From Bermanella sp. (GTDB lineage Bacteria; Pseudomonadota; Gammaproteobacteria; Pseudomonadales; Oceanobacteraceae): 64,000 bases of DNA. The translations under genes and the position numbers were made by a program. The first letter of the stretch is position 1; every line of letters starts with the position of its first letter. Positions 3,352-16,999 of this stretch are shown piece by piece. The notes below the pieces were generated by a model, which saw nothing but the letters and a program-made list of their open reading frames with translations, searched no databases and was not told the DNA's origin. Location of the stretch: contig JAPYOO010000001.1 in the NCBI GenBank assembly GCA_029938135.1, positions 1,638 through 65,637 on the forward strand. Reading direction: 5' to 3'.

Positions 3352-3675
3352 ATGGCCATTCGCCTCTCACTTCAGCCTAAAACCTTGCTGTTTTTAGCGT
3401 ACTTAATCGCAACAGCCACCGTACAAGCAAACGAGCCTGCCGATATGATTACGACGCACGAGCCGATAATGATTCCTCTTATAGAAAAAAGTATGAACTC
3501 TTCCGTCATAATGCCCTTAAGGGGAGATTCTCAGAATATGGTTAAAAAGGAATTTGGTGCCCCTTTTCACATGCACAAACCAAAAGGCACCCCCCCTATA
3601 AGCCGTTGGGATTTCGAAGAGTTTTCTGTATATTTTGAATCTGGCACTGTAATTCACACAGTATTAAGACGTTAG
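3352..3675 (+). CDS. Conserved small exported protein (SmpA/BamE-like pattern)
   Basis: Signal-peptide-like N-terminus. PxRGxSxxxVxxxFGxP...GxPPIxRWxxxxFSVYFE pattern. Confidence 0.6.
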   Translation: MAIRLSLQPKTLLFLAYLIATATVQANEPADMITTHEPIMIPLIEKSMNSSVIMPLRGDSQNMVKKEFGAPFHMHKPKGTPPISRWDFEEFSVYFESGTVIHTVLRR

Positions 3676-3779: not shown

Positions 3780-4445
3780 ATGCTCATACTTCGCAGCTGC
3801 CTTATATTGTCTTTAACCATCGCCAGTTTTGATCTATTGGCGCAAGTTGAGGAAATGAGCAATACCGAAATGACCGAGGCCTACATTAAAGACGGCGCCA
3901 TTGTTGTAAAGCAGCGCATTCAAACCGAGCCCCGTGAAAAAAAGAAAACTGTCAATGTGACCGTCGGTCCTGGGGAACCAGCCCAAAGCGAAGCGGAGAT
4001 TGTATTTGAGCAAGATTCTCAAAATATCCAACAAAATCAAACAAACAACCGTGAGTTTTCAGTTAACACACCACAACAACAACTTAATCAATTTGAACAA
4101 GGCCAGGCTATCTCAAGTTTCATTACACCCAACTTTCAAAGTGACAGCGCCCTAGCCCAGCAAGTACGAGCGCAAAACTTAGTGCGTAGCGGACTAGGCC
4201 TGCCTGATGATACTCAAGTAACACAAGAGTTAATGGTGCAATACCTAACCACCTTTGCTGGGCAAAGCTCGGGATCTCCACTGGGGGTAACTCAAAGTAT
4301 TAGTGCTGACGGCTTTCACTTCAGCACCCCCAATCTAGGTGGACAAATACCCAGCGGCGTATTCCCTTCTGGTGACAACAGCATGAATGTGGAAGTCAAT
4401 AACCAGCAGATCATCTGGAGTCTACTGTTCCCAAAACAGCCCTAG
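3780..4445 (+). CDS. Hypothetical secreted protein, Q/N-rich middle
   Basis: 221-aa ORF with hydrophobic signal peptide and GGAG RBS upstream. No family recognised. Confidence 0.6.
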   Translation: MLILRSCLILSLTIASFDLLAQVEEMSNTEMTEAYIKDGAIVVKQRIQTEPREKKKTVNVTVGPGEPAQSEAEIVFEQDSQNIQQNQTNNREFSVNTPQQQLNQFEQGQAISSFITPNFQSDSALAQQVRAQNLVRSGLGLPDDTQVTQELMVQYLTTFAGQSSGSPLGVTQSISADGFHFSTPNLGGQIPSGVFPSGDNSMNVEVNNQQIIWSLLFPKQP

Positions 4446-4456
4446 GACATTTAAAG

Positions 4457-4666
4457 CTAGCCAAAAAGATCAAAACTAGGCCCTGCGTTTTCTTGTTCGC
4501 CCTGATCTAGCCATAATATTGGTTTACTAAAGGTCTGCTCCATTAACCGAGCTAGCGCATCATTAATATTTCTCTTACTGCCTTGCGTTAACATGCCTAT
4601 TATTTGCTCTTCATCTTTACCCAGACACAAAGCAAACGATAATTCGTCTAAAGCATTTTCTTGCAT
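4457..4666 (-). CDS. Small hypothetical protein (about 69 aa from ATG 4666; track ORF extends to 4780)
   Basis: MQENALDELSFALCLG...PSFDLFG. Fills the gap between 4445 and the carboxylase promoter. No family recognised. Confidence 0.4.
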   Translation of the reverse strand: MQENALDELSFALCLGKDEEQIIGMLTQGSKRNINDALARLMEQTFSKPILWLDQGEQENAGPSFDLFG

Positions 4667-4932
4667 GATTGCTACGGCATTCAAACGTCGTATATCGGAT
4701 AATTCCACAAGCCAAATCCAGTCAATGTAAAAGGGCATTATAACTGTGCTTGCTTGTATGAAAAAGAGCCTCGCAAGCAATAAACTTGCTCTACCTCCCT
4801 ATACTTACAACTGGTAACACTATATAGCGTCTCAAAGCTGTTTTATTTAACAATGTCTGATATAACGGAGTTTATATTGGTTTCGAACACCAGCCACCCG
4901 CAACTTAAGTTAACAATAAAGCGCCAATAGAT

Positions 4933-7900
4933 ATGTCACAATTTGATACAGACCAATTATTCCAAATAGCTGAGAAGCTTAGCCAGGATTTCTCCTTATT
5001 TCCTGAGCAAGAAGACAGCAGTTCAAGCCCCCACATTCAAGGGCTTCTGAACCCAGAGCAAGTTCAAAATAAGTTGGATACATTACAACAGCTTAATATT
5101 GACGACTACATTGCAGAAGTAGTGGCTCCTAGCGAATCCAAGCAACGCATGAATGCTAAACAGTTGGTGCATAAACTCACCAACCGCTTTATTAGTGAAC
5201 AAGAGTTCGGCCCTTTATACGTGGCCGAAGTTGAACTGTCGTTCAATAACCAGTTTCGACGAATTGGCTTTATTGGCCAAAACCGATCTGAGCAGAATGG
5301 CGCCTGGCTTCCCGAGCACCACACTCAAGCCGTGGCAGCCATGCGTGGTTTTGCTAAACACGCCACCCCAATTGTCACCCTAATCGACACACCAGGGGCT
5401 AATGCCAGCGAACAGGCGAATAAAGAGAATCAAGCACACAGTATTTCAAGACTTATTTCTGAAATGACCAACTGTGACATCCCCACCGTAGGCATTATTT
5501 TGGGCGCAGGCTACTCTGGTGGCGCTATTCCACTGGCTTCTACTAATATACTACTGTCTTTACGGGACGGAATTTTCAACACTATCCAACCACAAGGTTT
5601 GGCTAGCATTGCACGTAAATATAACTTGTCTTGGCAGGAATGCTGTAAGTACGTTGGCGTATCTGCTTATGAGCTGCTTCCTAAGAACGTCATCGACGGC
5701 ATCGTAGATTTTGCTCCCAGTGACCGCATCGACAAATTACAAAACCTGCTCAATGCCATTACTTCAAGTATTTTAAGCATTGAAAAAGGGGCCGAAAATT
5801 TCGCCCGAGAAAACCCATATTTGATGGATCATTATCAGCGCAGCGTAGAGCGATATTTAAATCCATCCGATAAACTGGCCGCTATGGAAAAAGGCTCTAA
5901 GCTCATGCTTGCGTCTTCCCCTACTGAACACCACAACTTATTTGGCATGACCTATCGCTACATGCGTTATTTGACACTTCGCAAACGCATCTCTTCTACT
6001 ACGATTGGCCACTACAGCCGACTAGCCGAAGTTGAAGTGCCTAGTGGCAAGCTCATCGAACGCCAGGCAGAAGAAAAACGTAAAAAATTCCAAAAATGGC
6101 TTCAGGCACCGGATAAAATTCGTTATGACGACGAACTTAACAAGCTATGGAAAAACTATTGCCAAAAAAATGAAGAGCGCGGTGAGACTCGCGGCTCTAT
6201 ATCTAGCTTATTCTTTGGTGAACCAGAAGATAACTATCAGAAATCCAAACAGGACTTCAGCTTTTACTTAGGTCTATACCTTTTTAATCGCTGGAAGTCA
6301 GATGCTGACGTGAATTTTGCAGAGCTTATTAATTACCTGCAAAATGAGCAGCAAAACCGCTACCTATTGGTTCAAGACGACCTAGTTGATAGCCAATCCA
6401 TATTGAACTTTATCAAGAAGAAAGATCACAAATTAGCCAGCTTCATCTTCAGTAAGCTTGATTATGATACTCAGGCATTATTAGCTGAATATCAGGTAGA
6501 TCCTAGCAAAGCATTATTGACAGGGCTTACAGAAAGTCTCAATAACATCATCGATGGTGAGATTGTTCCTGAAGACGTAAGCAGCAGCATTAGCTTAAAC
6601 ACACACACCCAGCAATTACTTAACAGTGTGGCCAGTGGCTCTAATGAAGTTAACCGCCGCATCCTTGAAGACGCACTTGCACCTTATTTGCGTGTTAAAA
6701 ACAATAATGAATCCACCAAACAAACTGACGCCACTGTACTTGATGCAATATTAACCGATGATTTACGTAGCGATTTCATCAGCATCAGCCAAAACCTCAT
6801 TATGTTTGGTAAGCTTTATGACTTTGTCATTAATAATTTGGTAAAAATAGCCAAGGAAGCCAAAGAAACTCACAACTTATCATTCCAAGCGGTTAATGAT
6901 TTAATAAGCCAAGGCCTGGAGCACACCAACCAATTAAGTATTGCGCAAGATCACAAAGAGGAATTTGCCAATTGGTTTAAATACTTCATTGCCTCAAGTC
7001 AAAGAGGTGAGTTCTTAATACAGGTTGAAGAGTGGAAAAAGAACAGCTTTCCGCGTATCAGCGACACCTTGTTTGTAATCATCACTTTTTTCTTCGAAAA
7101 GTTATTACCCGAGTATTACCAATCGAACGAGGGGCAAAATTATAACGGCCGCATCAATCCTTATAGCATTGGCCGTAAGAAAGATTTTTGGAACCGTTTA
7201 ACCATCGCCTATTTTGACTTGCTTATTCAAGATGTTATTGACGGTGTAAAAAGGAAAAAAGCCACTAAGGCACGTGCATTTGTTGATCGTTTCTTTAATG
7301 ACTTTGAAGAAATCAATGATCACTTAATGACCTCGGACCCGGTTCAATTCCCAGGTTTTAGAGCCTCTATCGAAAAGGCGCTAAGCAATGACATTACCCC
7401 GTGTGGTGTTATTACCGGATTTGCTACCATAAAAGTGGGCAATGAAAGTCGCCGTATAGGTACATTAATTTCTAATTTGGATTTCCAAGCCGGTGCTTTT
7501 GATATGGCCAGCGCCGAGAAATTTTGTAAACTTATGGTGGAGTGTGCTCGCCATAACTACCCTATTGTTTGTTTTGTTTCTTCTGGCGGCATGCAAACTA
7601 AAGAAGGCGCTTCTGCACTTTTCTCCATGTCCGTCGTGAATGACCGTATTACACGCTTTGTTCGTGATAATGACTTGCCGGTTGTAGTATTTGGTTATGG
7701 TGACTGTACAGGTGGCGCACAAGCCAGCTTCGTGACACACCCTTTAGTACAAAGCTTTTACTTCTCAGGCACCAACATGCCTTTTGCCGGGCAAATAGTT
7801 GTACCGTCATACTTACCATCCACCGCGACACTATCGAACTACTTATCTACCAATGATGGCAGCATGGTCGATCTAGTGAAACATCCATTTGTGGAAGATT

Positions 7901-9795
7901 TAGATGAACAACTACGAGCCATAGACCCAACCATTCCAGTTGCACATAGAAGCGTTGACGAAGTACTCGCGCGCATACTTAAAGGTTTTGTCACCCCTGA
8001 AAAAGCCCAGGCTGCAGAATTGGACAATATCATTGAAGATAAAATCTTCAAAAAGGTAGAAAAAGTTCTTATTCACGCCCGAGGCTGTACAGCCGAAAAG
8101 CTTGTGCGCAAAGCAAAAGAAAATAACATTAAGGTGGTACTGGTACAGTCCGACCCTGATATGAACAGCACCGCTGCCGATTTATTAGACGATAACGACA
8201 GCCTAGTATGCATTGGCGGCAATACGCCGGATGAAAGTTACCTGAACGCTCAAAGTGTTATTAGAATTGCTGAACTGGAGAAAGTAGATTCCCTTCACCC
8301 AGGCATTGGGTTCCTATCAGAAAGCTCACAATTTGCGGCTTATTGTGCCAACCATAACATTAACTTTATTGGACCAAAGGTTTCCTCTATGGAAACTATG
8401 GGCAATAAGTCCAATGCTATTAATACCGCAATAAGTGCCGATGTACCGGTTGTTCCAGGCTCTTTGGGCACACTTACCACGTCAGCAATGGCTGCTAAGG
8501 TGGCAGATGAAATTGGCTACCCTATTATACTAAAGGCCGTTCACGGTGGTGGTGGTAAAGGCATACAGGTGGTTGAAGATCCTGCTGATATTCATGAGTT
8601 ATTCCACTTAATCTCGACTGAAGCGCGCAGTGCTTTTGGCAGCGGCGATATTTATCTTGAAAAGTTTGTTACTTCATTACGTCACATTGAAGTTCAAATT
8701 TTAAGAGATAACCATGGTAATACTCGAATCCTAGGGTTAAGAGATTGCTCAGTACAAAGAAATAATCAAAAGATTATCGAAGAGTCCGCGTCTTGCGCAC
8801 TGCCTAAGCACTTAGAAGAAAAAGTGTATGCTTTTGCGGAAAGACTTGCTGATGAAGTAGATTACAATGGCGCAGGTACTGTTGAATTCATTTACAACCT
8901 AGATGTAAATGACGTGTATTTCATGGAAATGAACACACGCTTGCAAGTAGAACACCCAGTGACTGAATTTGTAACCGGTATCGATATCGTTAGTGAGCAA
9001 TTCAATATCGCCAGCGGCGGCTCTATTAGCGACATGAAGGTCAAACAAAAAGGGTATGCAATTGAAGTTCGAATTAACGCTGAAAAAGGTGTTATTCAGG
9101 GTAATGATATTAATTTCTTACCGAATGCGGGCAAAATTACTAAGTGCGTATTACCAAAAGACAAGAATATTCAATTAATTAAATCCATTGATAGCGATAA
9201 AGAAGTGACACCTTTCTATGACAGCATGGTGGTACAGATCATTTGTAACGGCAAAGATCGAAACGACACTATCACCAAAATGCTTAAATACCTGGATAAA
9301 GTCGTTATTGAAGGTGTCAGCACTAACATCCCACTACTTAAAGGCGTCCTTAAAGATGAGACGTTCATTAATGGCGTGTACGATACTAATTACCTGCCCA
9401 ACTACCTAAAACGTATTGATCAGGCTCAATTAGTTAAAGATATGGAAATTAATGCCGGTTTAAGCAATCAAAATGTAACCCGCGAATCATTGGCCATTGA
9501 AGGATCGAGTGAACTAAAAGTATTGGCGCCGGCCAGTTCGATTTTTTACAGCTCATCATCACCAAGCGAACCTTCGTATGTAAAAGAGGGTGACATTGTC
9601 TCGATTGATCAGACTTTATGCCTAATGGAAGCCATGAAGATGTTTAGCCCCTTAAGCCTTAAATCATTTAATGCTCAGGGCAACACACTTTACGATGCTG
9701 AAGTACAATATCAAATTGTGCGCATCCATAACGCAGAGGGACAGCAAGTAAATCACGGTGACTTATTATTCGTAATTAAGCCTGTAATGCACTAA
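4933..9795 (+). CDS. Single-chain multidomain acetyl/acyl-CoA carboxylase (CT-alpha, linker, CT-beta, biotin carboxylase, BCCP)
   Basis: AccA-like LIDTPGA / GYSGGA / IQPQG. AccD-like SSGGMQTKEG / TGGAQASF / FAG. AccC-like HPGIGFLSES, GGGGKG, RDCSVQRNNQK, EMNTRLQVEHPVTE. BCCP EAMKM with biotin Lys1569 at nt 9637-9639. Confidence 0.9.
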   Translation: MSQFDTDQLFQIAEKLSQDFSLFPEQEDSSSSPHIQGLLNPEQVQNKLDTLQQLNIDDYIAEVVAPSESKQRMNAKQLVHKLTNRFISEQEFGPLYVAEVELSFNNQFRRIGFIGQNRSEQNGAWLPEHHTQAVAAMRGFAKHATPIVTLIDTPGANASEQANKENQAHSISRLISEMTNCDIPTVGIILGAGYSGGAIPLASTNILLSLRDGIFNTIQPQGLASIARKYNLSWQECCKYVGVSAYELLPKNVIDGIVDFAPSDRIDKLQNLLNAITSSILSIEKGAENFARENPYLMDHYQRSVERYLNPSDKLAAMEKGSKLMLASSPTEHHNLFGMTYRYMRYLTLRKRISSTTIGHYSRLAEVEVPSGKLIERQAEEKRKKFQKWLQAPDKIRYDDELNKLWKNYCQKNEERGETRGSISSLFFGEPEDNYQKSKQDFSFYLGLYLFNRWKSDADVNFAELINYLQNEQQNRYLLVQDDLVDSQSILNFIKKKDHKLASFIFSKLDYDTQALLAEYQVDPSKALLTGLTESLNNIIDGEIVPEDVSSSISLNTHTQQLLNSVASGSNEVNRRILEDALAPYLRVKNNNESTKQTDATVLDAILTDDLRSDFISISQNLIMFGKLYDFVINNLVKIAKEAKETHNLSFQAVNDLISQGLEHTNQLSIAQDHKEEFANWFKYFIASSQRGEFLIQVEEWKKNSFPRISDTLFVIITFFFEKLLPEYYQSNEGQNYNGRINPYSIGRKKDFWNRLTIAYFDLLIQDVIDGVKRKKATKARAFVDRFFNDFEEINDHLMTSDPVQFPGFRASIEKALSNDITPCGVITGFATIKVGNESRRIGTLISNLDFQAGAFDMASAEKFCKLMVECARHNYPIVCFVSSGGMQTKEGASALFSMSVVNDRITRFVRDNDLPVVVFGYGDCTGGAQASFVTHPLVQSFYFSGTNMPFAGQIVVPSYLPSTATLSNYLSTNDGSMVDLVKHPFVEDLDEQLRAIDPTIPVAHRSVDEVLARILKGFVTPEKAQAAELDNIIEDKIFKKVEKVLIHARGCTAEKLVRKAKENNIKVVLVQSDPDMNSTAADLLDDNDSLVCIGGNTPDESYLNAQSVIRIAELEKVDSLHPGIGFLSESSQFAAYCANHNINFIGPKVSSMETMGNKSNAINTAISADVPVVPGSLGTLTTSAMAAKVADEIGYPIILKAVHGGGGKGIQVVEDPADIHELFHLISTEARSAFGSGDIYLEKFVTSLRHIEVQILRDNHGNTRILGLRDCSVQRNNQKIIEESASCALPKHLEEKVYAFAERLADEVDYNGAGTVEFIYNLDVNDVYFMEMNTRLQVEHPVTEFVTGIDIVSEQFNIASGGSISDMKVKQKGYAIEVRINAEKGVIQGNDINFLPNAGKITKCVLPKDKNIQLIKSIDSDKEVTPFYDSMVVQIICNGKDRNDTITKMLKYLDKVVIEGVSTNIPLLKGVLKDETFINGVYDTNYLPNYLKRIDQAQLVKDMEINAGLSNQNVTRESLAIEGSSELKVLAPASSIFYSSSSPSEPSYVKEGDIVSIDQTLCLMEAMKMFSPLSLKSFNAQGNTLYDAEVQYQIVRIHNAEGQQVNHGDLLFVIKPVMH

Positions 9796-12922: not shown

Positions 12923-13480
12923 TTATTTCAGAAAGTTAATTACATCACGGTCGTTCATGGCTTTATTTATGATTTCAGATAACAACCCATTCATGTATTT
13001 TTCATTAAACTTTTCACTGGGTGCAATTGCTACATCCTGAGAGCGATTAGCTGAAAACCGCTTTTTAAAACTTGACCCACCGCGACTCACTAGCATGGAA
13101 ATTTCCGCTTCTAACTTTACACGACTCACCCAACTTTCATCCGGAGTAGAATAATGCAATTTATCTATTTTCAATGTAAGTTTAGTAAAGGGCTCGCTCC
13201 CCTTTTGCATCTTCACACCCTGAGCTAACATCGCTTTTTGAATGGATTCACCTAGGGACTGAACTAAAGGTAATTTAAAGGCAATCTCGCCTTCTTTTTT
13301 TGCATTTCTATAACCCAATAACGCAGTGTTTTTACGATTATCAGTAATTAATAATTCGATAGGTGTGACCAAACCGCTTAACTGTGTAAAGGACAGTGAC
13401 GGTAGTACCTGCACTTTTTGTGGTGCCAAAGTACAAGCAGTCAAACAGGTCAATAACACGATATAAAAAACATTTCTCAT
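12923..13480 (-). CDS. yajG: YajG family lipoprotein
   Basis: Lipobox LTAC, D.R....LG.R motif, typical size. ATG overlaps the upstream TAA (TAATG). Confidence 0.75.
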   Translation of the reverse strand: MRNVFYIVLLTCLTACTLAPQKVQVLPSLSFTQLSGLVTPIELLITDNRKNTALLGYRNAKKEGEIAFKLPLVQSLGESIQKAMLAQGVKMQKGSEPFTKLTLKIDKLHYSTPDESWVSRVKLEAEISMLVSRGGSSFKKRFSANRSQDVAIAPSEKFNEKYMNGLLSEIINKAMNDRDVINFLK

Positions 13481-16233
13481 TAAAAAGCTCCTCCAAGTTG
13501 AACATATACAGTATTAGAGCCTAGGGAATTAATGCCTTTTGCCATTCCTAAACGAAACCGTAAATTAAAATTATAAACCAAAGTTGTATCTAGAACCGCT
13601 TCGGCACCTAAGGAAGAATATACACCTCCCATATTTTCACCCTCATTCCACACCATGGCATTATCACTAAATGCTCGCAGTGACCAGCCACTGAATCCCA
13701 CTGGCGGAGACATTAGATTTTCATCGACCCAAGTGAACGGTAAGCGATACTCTATATTATATATAAGGGTATTCTCACCCACTAATTGCCCAATGTTTTC
13801 ATCGAAACCTCGCAAAGCATATTCTCGTTGTTTGAGTTGAATTCCCGGGCCAATATAAACATCACTACGTTCACCTCCCAATCTAAAGGGAGAGTTACTT
13901 GAAAACCCAACACCCACAAACAACCGCTGAGCAAGCGTATGACCTAAATCATTGGTTTGATAATAGCGGGTATTAACACTTAAAACTTGACCCGTGAATA
14001 AAGAGTTACCTACTTTCTCAGCGCTCTCTAAGGACATGTTCAATTGCCAGCCATCACTGGATCCGCCCGCATTTAAAGCGGATGTTAGTCCATCATAGAT
14101 AACACCTATGGCTAACCAATTATCGTCTACTTCACCTCCTATTTTAGAGTGACTTTTATCTATCAAAAATTCTGAATGACTATTGATAAGTGCAACATAT
14201 GGGAAAACACTATTGGCAATACTTAAACTAGGCTGCATATAAGCGGTGAACCACTGGGAATTATATTCACTTACGCCTTCAACTCCAGAGGATCCTAAAC
14301 TTTGCTGAAGCCCTAAAATCCAACGCCCATTATAAGTATAGTTAAATTTAACCAGCCCTTTTTCATGTTGTTTTTCATACGTTAACTGAGCCAAATATTG
14401 ATGATTATTCAAAGCATCCTGCCCACTGGTGAAGAAACCAACCTCCGTCAAATTATCCTGAGCAAGATAAACCGGGAACCAATACTTGGGCAACAAACTT
14501 GGTAACGGATTGTAATGTGCATCATCCACTAAAGATAAGTCCACCAATGGAATTGGCTGGGACGGCTCTAAATTTGTTGCATACAGATCGGGATAAGACT
14601 TCAATTCAACCGAGGCCACCTTATAACCCGCTGTTTCATATGACAAGGTCAATGCATTTTCAGCTGAGGTGGGAACCAATTGCTTGAAGCCCCCCACACT
14701 ATGACTTAACCGCGCTTTATCACTGCCATCCAAATTAATGCTATATATTTCCGATTGGCCCAACTGGCTTTGAATAAAATAAACTTTATTCGAAAACAGT
14801 ACCGGCTGAGATTTTAGTTCACTATCCGTGGTGATTGCTTGCCACTTGCCCTCCGTCCATAGATACAGCTCCCAGGGCTTAGATGAAAACTTAATACTTG
14901 CTACGATATCCCCAGACTCATTCACATCAAAAGAGGATACAACGTCAGCCATGTCCCCGCGCCAAATACCTTCGACCACTTGGCCTTTTGAATTTAAGCG
15001 TTCCAGCACTGCTATGCCATGCTCGTATCGTAACGCCACAATTCGCTGTGAGGATTGCCACTTAGCCAGCCGGTAGCGGGAACAATGAGTTAAACGTATT
15101 AAAGAGCCCTTCTGCAAAACATATAGATCGTAATACAACGCATGCTGTCCACAGTTTTCTAATTGACTCACTAATACCTGCCCGTTTTTATTTACATCCA
15201 CACTCGCCAGTGAATTAAGCGGCACCACAGACACCTCTATGCCTTTATCATAGTGGTATAAATTAGCGCCTTTATTACCGTCTATTGCTGCATACCAGAA
15301 ATCTTGTTTGTTACCTTTAGCAATAAACCCATAATCTAGGTGGCTATTTGATATTGATTTAACATTACTTGTCTGCAGCGTCGCTATACGATGCAGTTGA
15401 GGTGAAAACTTTCCATTTAAGTAATTTTGAAAATCTGGCCACAGTTGCTCAAGACTTTTTCCGGTAATCAAAACTGGATTGGAATTAACCTGGTAAGGCA
15501 GTAAATTATCACTGTAATTATTAATGAGTTGATTAATGGCTTTTTTACCATAAACATCCTCGATAAATCGGAAAAAATAAACACCGTATAAATAGGCTGT
15601 ATTAAATGGCCAGTCATGAGGATTAACGGTATTAATTCTAGAGATTGGTTTAATACCAGAAAGCACTTCTTGGCGCATAATCATCTGAAATACATCAGAC
15701 TGCCCTCGCCCAACACCCTTGGCATCATTGGTTTCCATATAGGTAGCAAGCCCTTCTTGAAACCAATTAGGATGTAAAGCGTTAGGAAACAGCAATAGGT
15801 ATCGCCCCAAAATTGAACGTAGCATTAAAGGTAAATCCAATGCCTTATCGGTATGCAGTATATGGGTGTATTCATGATGAATGAGCATTTTCAGCCAATC
15901 ATCGAAAACCAAAAGTTCACCTTGAGTGGGTGGCTGCATGAACAGCGTCATGGCGTTATTAGGAATGGGGCTAGCGAACCCATTGGCCTGATCAAATTCA
16001 TCTAATAAAATAACATGGGTTTTATTGGCTGGACGCCAATTAAAATATTCAGATAAATTTTGGTGACTTTGTTCTGCCAGATAATCCACCTTACCCACAT
16101 AGCTTTTAAGGCTTGTAGGATAGTGAATTAAAAAGTGCTCACCCACATGTGTTTTCCAGTTAAGACTAGGGTCGGCGCCATGACTACTGGCCACCCCTAA
16201 TAAGAAAAAACACAGCAATATTCGATTAAACAT
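13480..16233 (-). CDS. Outer-membrane fusion: gluzincin-type metallopeptidase domain + TolB/WD40-like beta-propeller + Omp85/BamA-type barrel
   Basis: Signal peptide from ATG 16233 (16242 also possible; track start 16308 lies inside yaaA). HEYTH plus downstream WFQEGLATY. Short repeated beta-strand segments. Alternating aromatic/hydrophobic C-terminal strands ending VYVQLGGAF (terminal Phe). Confidence 0.75.
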
Positions 16234-16999
16234 TAGACTCATCACGAATAAACACCCATTCCTTAGATTTTGAAAGTTCCTCGCTGAATGAATATCCGGC
16301 AACATCAAACTTTTTAATGTCTTCCACTTTCTTAATACGATTTCTTATCACGTAGGCGGCCATCATGCCCCTGGCCTTTTTCGCATAAAAGCTAATTATT
16401 TTGTATTGACCATTTTTTTGATCTTTAAAAACAGGCGTAATTATTTGTGCTTTCAGTATTTTCTTATTTACAGCTTTAAAATACTCATTGGACGCTAAGT
16501 TTAACAGCACATCCTTATCATTAAGCTGCTGATTGAGTTTATCGGTAATAATATCACCCCAAAACTCGTATAAATTTTTACCCCTTAAATTCGGATATTT
16601 TGTGCCCATTTCTAATCGATAAGCCTGCATTAAGTCCAAAGGCTTTAACAAACCATATAACCCCGAAAGCATTCGCAAGTGTTGTTGTGCAAATTTCATA
16701 TCACTTTTGCTCAATGCATAGGCATCTAAACCGGTATAAACATCCCCTTTAAATGCGTAAATGGCCGGCCTCGCATTATCAAGTGTGAAAGGTTGCTGCC
16801 AATGCTGAAAACGAGTGGTATTTAAATGGGCGAGTTTGTCACTTAAACCCATCAAATTAGCGACCTCTTTTGGCGCAAGCTCTTTTATTTGATCAATAAG
16901 CTCTTGGGCATCGACTAAAAAGTCTGGCTGGGAAAAATCATCCGTAGGTAAAGCACTTTCATAGTCTAAGGTTTTTGCAGGGGACACCAACATCAACAT
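16226..16999 (-). CDS. yaaA: Peroxide stress protein YaaA
   Basis: [55 protein letters not shown]. Confidence 0.95.

Follow-up and report, generated by a model that had tools for sequence, protein, structure and literature searches.

The single-chain carboxylase gene and its protein

The window analyzed here is a stretch of 64,000 nucleotides from a Bermanella sp. genome (contig JAPYOO010000001.1), and the subject of this report is the accS-type gene located at positions 4933..9795 on its + strand. This gene encodes a single-chain acetyl-CoA carboxylase (ACC) of 1620 aa, labeled P0001. The region is occupied by a single intact open reading frame (ORF) with an ATG start, the sole long frame there, and its GC content of 0.39-0.46 is the same as that of the flanking DNA. 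All features of the gene given below lie on the + strand.

Mapping with Pfam and NCBIfam models, together with the secondary structure of an AlphaFold2 (AF2) model, revealed the domain order carboxyltransferase (CT)-alpha, helical linker, CT-beta, biotin carboxylase (BC) and biotin carboxyl carrier protein (BCCP). The AF2 model covers aa 1-1040 and was built on 42 homologues (pLDDT 77.8, pTM 0.68). The AccA-like CT-alpha domain (aa ~63-285; 5119..5787) matches PF03255 (E = 3e-28) and NF041504 (E = 9e-34), adopts an alpha/beta fold in the model, and was shown by a motif scan to contain the oxyanion-hole motif GAGYSGGA at aa 191-198. The spacer of ~480-500 aa between the two CT halves is folded and helical, not disordered, in the model, and consists of three parts. 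The conserved N-terminal half (aa ~286-475; 5788..6357) is all-helical, aligns to residues ~296-482 of PDB entry 9kkm, and shows 44-65% column identity among 41 homologues. It is followed by a nested seven-helix insert domain (aa 476-598; 6358..6726), recognized from the AF2 model and from an alignment gap against 9KKM that spans aa 473-598. The conserved C-terminal half (aa ~599-790; 6727..7302), also helical in the model, aligns to 9kkm from residue 496 and contains the invariant residues W681, W701 and DFWNR (751-755).

The AccD-like CT-beta domain (aa ~791-1010; 7303..7962) was matched weakly by TIGR00515 (E = 1e-10 at aa 789-935), and the fold of this region is supported by the AF2 model and Foldseek. 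It is the best conserved part of the N-terminal 1040 aa, with an identity of 0.8-0.9, and contains the motifs SSGGMQTKEG (aa 883-892) and DCTGG (aa 924-928). The AccC-like BC domain (aa 1042-1494; 8056..9414) was assigned from NF006367 (E = 9.5e-148), PF00289, PF02786 and PF02785, and carries the motifs GGGGKG (1205-1210), RNNQKIIEE (1276-1284) and EMNTRLQVEH (1332-1341). The BCCP domain (aa 1513-1616; 9469..9780) was assigned from TIGR00531 (E = 2.6e-12) and PF00364, and the biotinyl-lysine K1569 lies within its EAMKM motif (codon 9637-9639). The catalytic and biotinylation motifs of P0001 are all intact, and the residues are invariant in 14-42 homologues. No CxxC motif was detected anywhere in P0001 by the motif scan, indicative of the absence of an AccD-type zinc ribbon. 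An earlier note, made from the DNA letters and their translated ORFs, had proposed the coordinates of the gene, this domain order, a spacer of ~480 aa and Lys1569; all proved correct, and its idea of the linker as a scaffold holds in the form of the folded helical scaffold seen in the model.

The top sequence match in the PDB, by far, is 9kkm_A (also 9w4a), "Acetyl-CoA carboxylase multifunctional enzyme AccADCB", of 1517 aa (phmmer, E = 0, 1843 bits). P0001 aa 6-472 align to residues 16-482 of this chain, and aa 599-1618 align to residues 496-1515. When the AF2 model was compared with solved structures by Foldseek, 9kkm_A was again ranked first (E = 1.3e-78, TMq 0.80, 47% identity over 1019 columns); the matches ranked below it are carboxyltransferases (AccA and AccD) from S. 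aureus, E. coli and Chloroflexus. The title of 9kkm describes a cryo-EM holoenzyme dimer from Shewanella oneidensis with the mutation E1238A, and 9KKM was released on 2025-11-19. Its chain of 1517 aa has the same length as SO_0840 (AccS), which links the structure to that protein.

The architecture of S. oneidensis SO_0840 was annotated, and the protein named AccS, in 2016; this bacterium is without AccABCD and has AccS in its place (PMC4793157). AccS was later identified on a streptavidin blot as a biotinylated band near 170 kDa (Xu et al., 2024; PMC11602165). In the same study, accA, accD and accBC from E. coli together rescued the growth defect of an accR deletion mutant, which under-expresses accS; AccR was described as a divergent LysR activator of accS in Shewanella, and the domain order of AccS was noted to be unlike that of eukaryotic ACC (PMC11602165). 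A literature search found no paper describing the 9KKM/9W4A structure, although its EMDB map is listed in a methods preprint, and no enzymology paper on AccS. Because AccS has been published and its structure solved, the architecture is not new. The earlier note had taken the fusion for an undescribed system, a claim that has to be withdrawn: AccS of Shewanella is a published, characterized enzyme of the same architecture, named in 2016, with genetics reported in 2024 and a structure in the PDB (9KKM, 9W4A).

Acetyl-CoA carboxylase genes in related genomes and at the accS locus

More than 1400 database proteins match the AccS family, which occurs in at least 568 species genomes among GTDB representatives, closed chromosomes among them, as an uninterrupted ORF of 1500-1680 aa. 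The carriers among the matches listed include Bermanella, Oceaniserpentilla, Thalassolituus, Oleispira, Oceanobacter, Bacterioplanes, OM182 and many "Pseudomonadales" metagenome-assembled genomes (MAGs), and the nearest named relatives of P0001 come from Bermanella MAGs (84-90% identity over the best-matching segment). AccS is far more widespread than was stated in 2024, when a "small number of genera" was given (PMC11602165), and the occurrence of similar fusions in other marine gammaproteobacteria, which the earlier note had only believed, is borne out. Apart from the draft state of the assembly, nothing speaks for the fusion being an assembly error or a read-through of neighboring accA, accD, accC and accB. 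Conservation of the full-length ORF across these genomes excludes such an artefact, and a solved structure exists for the purified AccS protein; the probability that remains for this explanation is negligible. Public records misname AccS as "carbamoyl-phosphate synthase large subunit", "ATP-grasp domain-containing protein" or "acetyl/propionyl-CoA carboxylase alpha subunit", and these annotations should be corrected.

The assembly containing the window is a draft of 687 contigs and is 90% complete. A check of this genome for separate accA/B/C/D genes found no match above the curated cut-offs for the accA, accD and BCCP models, and the best accA and accD matches are the fusion itself. Other biotin carboxylase paralogues were detected as frames of 712, 677 and 1110 aa, located beside or fused to a 12S-type CT; they look like enzymes of the methylcrotonyl-CoA carboxylase (MCC), propionyl-CoA carboxylase (PCC) and long-chain acyl-CoA carboxylase (LCC) types. 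This genome encodes a second single-chain carboxylase, an LCC-like protein of 1108 aa with the order BC, BCCP, 12S-type CT. Its gene (L101:1732-5058, - strand, corresponding to G000:C505:31231-34557) adjoins a choline-dehydrogenase-like gene and a gene for a PotD-like binding protein.

Ten fusion-bearing genomes, made up of this genome and nine relatives, among them the same-genus genome G131 (2 contigs, 99% complete), were searched in the same way. Canonical accD was found in none of the ten, and accA likewise in none. Matches to accC above the cut-off were found in two (G131 and G046). The G131 match was inspected and rejected as an ACC subunit, as it is a 479-aa PycA followed by a 608-aa PycB, that is, a two-subunit pyruvate carboxylase. 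This PycA/PycB pair lies together with a divergent LysR gene (L099; G131:C1:437500-444500), and PycA, scoring above the accC cut-off, could be misannotated as AccC.

A survey of the order covered 151 genomes, each at least 90% complete, in which the fusion was detected by its fusion-specific linker. The linker was found in 23 genomes, 18 of which are without accA, whereas accA is present in all 128 genomes without the fusion (126 above the cut-off, and 2 in which contig ends split the gene). All 18 of the accA-less genomes therefore have the fusion. Their best accA matches, at E values of 1e-18 to 1e-23, correspond to the fusion itself wherever the match is listed. This complementary distribution of fusion and accA across the 151 genomes indicates that the fusion is the housekeeping ACC. 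Within the genus g35, G032 has the fusion without accA, whereas G079 and G121 have accA without the fusion; such a mixture within one genus points to replacement events. The type of ACC also varies within the genus g38 (G082 versus G035 and G123); fusion alone, accA alone and both together all occur, a pattern suggestive of horizontal replacement.

Overall, the gene at 4933..9795 belongs to the AccS/AccADCB family as a long form, and it very probably encodes the only ACC of the cell, serving as the housekeeping source of malonyl-CoA for fatty-acid synthesis. Several observations weigh against this assignment. No enzyme assay was found for P0001 or any other long-form AccS. The LCC-like 1108-aa protein and two or three other acyl-CoA carboxylases could in principle supply some malonyl-CoA. 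The assembly is incomplete, although separate subunits are likewise missing from complete genomes of the same genus. Both systems coexist in some lineages, as 5 of the 23 fusion-bearing genomes also keep canonical accA; three of these five belong to one family (f44: G043, G088 and G128) and encode a divergent AccS-like paralogue of 1511-1547 aa with ~25% linker identity, which may have a second function. Finally, no LysR gene was found among the ORFs beside accS, where Shewanella accS has AccR, and none was detected in 80 related loci by tblastn with one probe, which is a weak test.

The fragmented assembly and the coexistence of fusion and accA in those five genomes, the divergent paralogue group included, would also be compatible with a specialized acyl-CoA carboxylase, acting on propionyl-CoA or longer acyl-CoAs or in a secondary lipid pathway, beside a canonical ACC missed by the assembly. 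However, the near-complete same-genus and same-family genomes G131, G046 and G091 are without accA, accD and accC (leaving aside the accC matches in G131, which is PycA, and G046), every accA-less genome of the order carries the fusion, and the E. coli subunits rescue the Shewanella mutant that under-expresses accS. A specialized enzyme is accordingly considered very improbable. With AccS as the sole ACC in 18 of the 151 genomes, and with the type varying within one genus, the distribution bears on antibiotics that target ACC. The spread of AccS likewise bears on how the metabolism of marine hydrocarbon degraders (Thalassolituus, Oleispira and Bermanella, for example) is modeled.

From knowledge of the family and the intact motifs, a reaction sequence can be proposed for the housekeeping enzyme. 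The C-terminal BC domain would carboxylate the biotin on K1569 of BCCP, using ATP and bicarbonate. The swinging BCCP would then bring carboxybiotin to the active site between CT-alpha and CT-beta, where the carboxyl group would be passed to acetyl-CoA. The helical linker of ~500 aa would keep CT-alpha and CT-beta in one chain and probably contributes to the holoenzyme dimer, as it does in the structure from Shewanella.

The neighbor order of accS is kept in Bermanella-like loci. Upstream lie, on the - strand, a DUF2062 gene and a lolCDE-like ABC/FtsX pair. These are accompanied by three small ORFs upstream of accS: one without a family at 3352-3675 (+); one of 221 aa at 3780-4445 (+), which has a signal-peptide-like start, is Q/N-rich and has no Pfam family at E <= 1; and one of ~70-107 aa without a family at 4457-4780 (-), divergent to accS, which 22 of 80 related loci, other genera included, have within ~2 kb upstream of accS. 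Downstream of accS are prc (tail-specific protease), a DUF599 gene and a lipoprotein gene. Further along, a 942-aa ORF at 13480-16308 (-) has no Pfam family at E <= 1 save a weak match to Peptidase_M1 (E = 0.07).

Directly upstream of the start codon, at 4838..4932 (+), accS is preceded by a leader or promoter block of ~100 nt, conserved almost without change in 10 Bermanella-like loci. RNAalifold predicts a 7-bp stem, without covariation, between a UAUUGGC segment of the leader and GCCAAUA immediately ahead of the ATG; the same segment can alternatively pair with an AGCCA close by. The leader has no Rfam match and no obvious Shine-Dalgarno sequence. An RNA element is not claimed, as neither an Rfam family nor covariation was found. 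The block may be a regulatory site that replaces the AccR system of Shewanella.

The nested helical domain of the linker

The insert occupies aa 473-598 (~126 aa) between the two linker halves, at a position where 9KKM has 13 residues. Its length is 108-133 aa in the long forms and 10-13 aa in the short forms. It is present in 112 of the 121 closest homologues and missing in 9; the long form to which most close members belong thus carries a nested domain missing from the solved enzyme. When modeled alone from 31 sequences, the insert gave a compact seven-helix domain (AF2, pLDDT 92.8, pTM 0.85). No PDB match was found by sequence profile, the best Foldseek match had an E value of 1.9, and no Pfam or NCBIfam family was matched. 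The insert domain is the part of the gene left unexplained by known families.

Two Bermanella-like AccS proteins that are 75-77% identical to P0001, P0030 (1502 aa) and P0031 (1504 aa), have no insert, and 10 residues are left in its place. In a tree calculated without the insert columns, both are nested among the long forms, and the boundaries of the gap are the same as in the distant short forms. This clean loss indicates that the insert can be lost and is probably dispensable for catalysis. AccS is the sole carrier of the domain in the own genome and in 12 same-genus genomes, where no second copy was found, and no match was found in 400 other Pseudomonadota genomes by a search scoring 10 candidates per genome. 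The confinement of the insert to AccS in its genus and the lack of matches in these 400 genomes indicate that it is old and vertically kept in this lineage, and not actively spreading.

A profile of 31 AccS inserts was searched by HMMER against 1.84 billion representative proteins, and matched 1358 proteins at E <= 1e-3, of which 196 reached E <= 1e-10. Among the 149 best matches, 138 are unlike the rest of AccS; the proteins range from 79 to 6426 aa and contain 1-6 copies each (carrier proteins are labeled P0124-P0272 and P0277-P0387). In a profile-profile comparison by hhalign, AccS inserts and 22 copies from elsewhere matched with 99.6% probability (E = 3.6e-24, 123 columns). The domain was found nested in asparaginyl-tRNA synthetase (AsnRS), where it splits tRNA-synt_2 at about profile position 70, in MraY, in MurJ at profile position 77, and in a BPD_transp_2 permease at position 136. 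It is appended in one or two copies to LptE of Nitrospirota, lies near the N-terminus of the phosphotransferase system (PTS) protein EIIC, and also occurs between the MacB periplasmic domain and FtsX. Other hosts are OPT transporters, DUF6785 proteins, a lipoxygenase-like protein, a Ser/Thr kinase fused to FGE-sulfatase, peroxiredoxins, signal peptidase, CAAX protease, histidine kinases, many 3-keto-disaccharide hydrolase proteins and MFS permeases. The source names of the hosts include Nitrospirota, Thermodesulfovibrionales, Cyanobacteriota, Blastocatellia (Acidobacteriota) and a Methanotrichaceae archaeon.

Tentatively, and as a possibility rather than a probability, the insert can be viewed as a member of an undescribed family of autonomous seven-helix domains of ~120 aa with the core ...LN...(L)NR.LLE.AYP, placed in-frame, singly or in tandem, within or next to dozens of proteins from several phyla that are otherwise unrelated and in many cases essential. 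A non-splicing "passenger" element carried in-frame in tolerant loops would account for this spread and for the clean loss, as would a general-purpose binding module; the searches establish the distribution of the domain and the homology of its copies, and mobility and any function are inferred. A literature search found nothing on in-frame selfish domains.

Instead of a passenger, the insert could be a module peculiar to AccS with a regulatory or docking role, binding for example an effector or a partner in fatty-acid synthesis. It is well folded in the AF2 model, and it is kept with the core LN...NR..LE in 80 of 80 loci from several families at 13-50% identity, which implies long purifying selection. 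However, P0030 and P0031 have lost it cleanly, the Shewanella enzyme is functional without it, and the domain sits in proteins unlinked to lipid synthesis (AsnRS, MraY, MurJ and permeases). A role specific to AccS is judged unlikely.

Comparison with known carboxylases

How does P0001 compare with the carboxylases already characterized? Every catalytic module of P0001 is homologous to its counterpart among the E. coli-type subunits AccA, AccB, AccC and AccD (PDB 2F9Y, 1BNC, 8UZ2), and the two-step biotin chemistry is the same. The BC domain matches 1bnc with an E value of 5e-94 and other solved BC structures with about 1e-94 to 1e-106, and the CT halves of the AF2 model match the AccA and AccD folds in Foldseek (TMt 0.6-0.75). 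The multi-subunit ACC, however, consists of four subunits, and its AccD has an N-terminal Cys4 zinc ribbon, whereas P0001 is one chain with a helical alpha-beta linker and without the zinc ribbon. The CT modules of P0001 have diverged so much that they score far below the curated cut-offs for the separate subunits (76 versus 319 bits for accA, 44 versus 317 bits for accD).

Eukaryotic ACC and bacterial LCC resemble P0001 in carrying all activities on one polypeptide together with a big non-catalytic helical region. Their order is BC, BCCP, (central domain) and CT with the beta-like half first, whereas in P0001 the CT comes first and alpha precedes beta; the earlier note had recognized this contrast, and it holds. 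The CT domain of LCC (PDB 5FIF) is of the 12S/PccB type, unlike the AccA/AccD type of P0001, and the structural match of 5fif to the P0001 model in Foldseek is weak (TM 0.18-0.35; TMq 0.18). The AccS fusion arose independently of the eukaryotic ACC and LCC fusions.

The closest known system is AccS of Shewanella (SO_0840). The two proteins share the domain order, colinear homology over the whole chain with 47% identity over aa 1-1040, the fold (TM 0.80, model versus structure), the catalytic motifs, and the genomic role in the absence of AccABCD. They differ only in that Shewanella AccS has 13 residues where P0001 has the nested helical domain of ~126 aa (aa 473-598). The loci also differ: Shewanella accS adjoins the divergent LysR gene accR, whereas the P0001 gene lies instead beside the lolCDE-like operon, the three small ORFs and prc. 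The divergent AccR is thus a feature of the Shewanella locus, and not of the enzyme.

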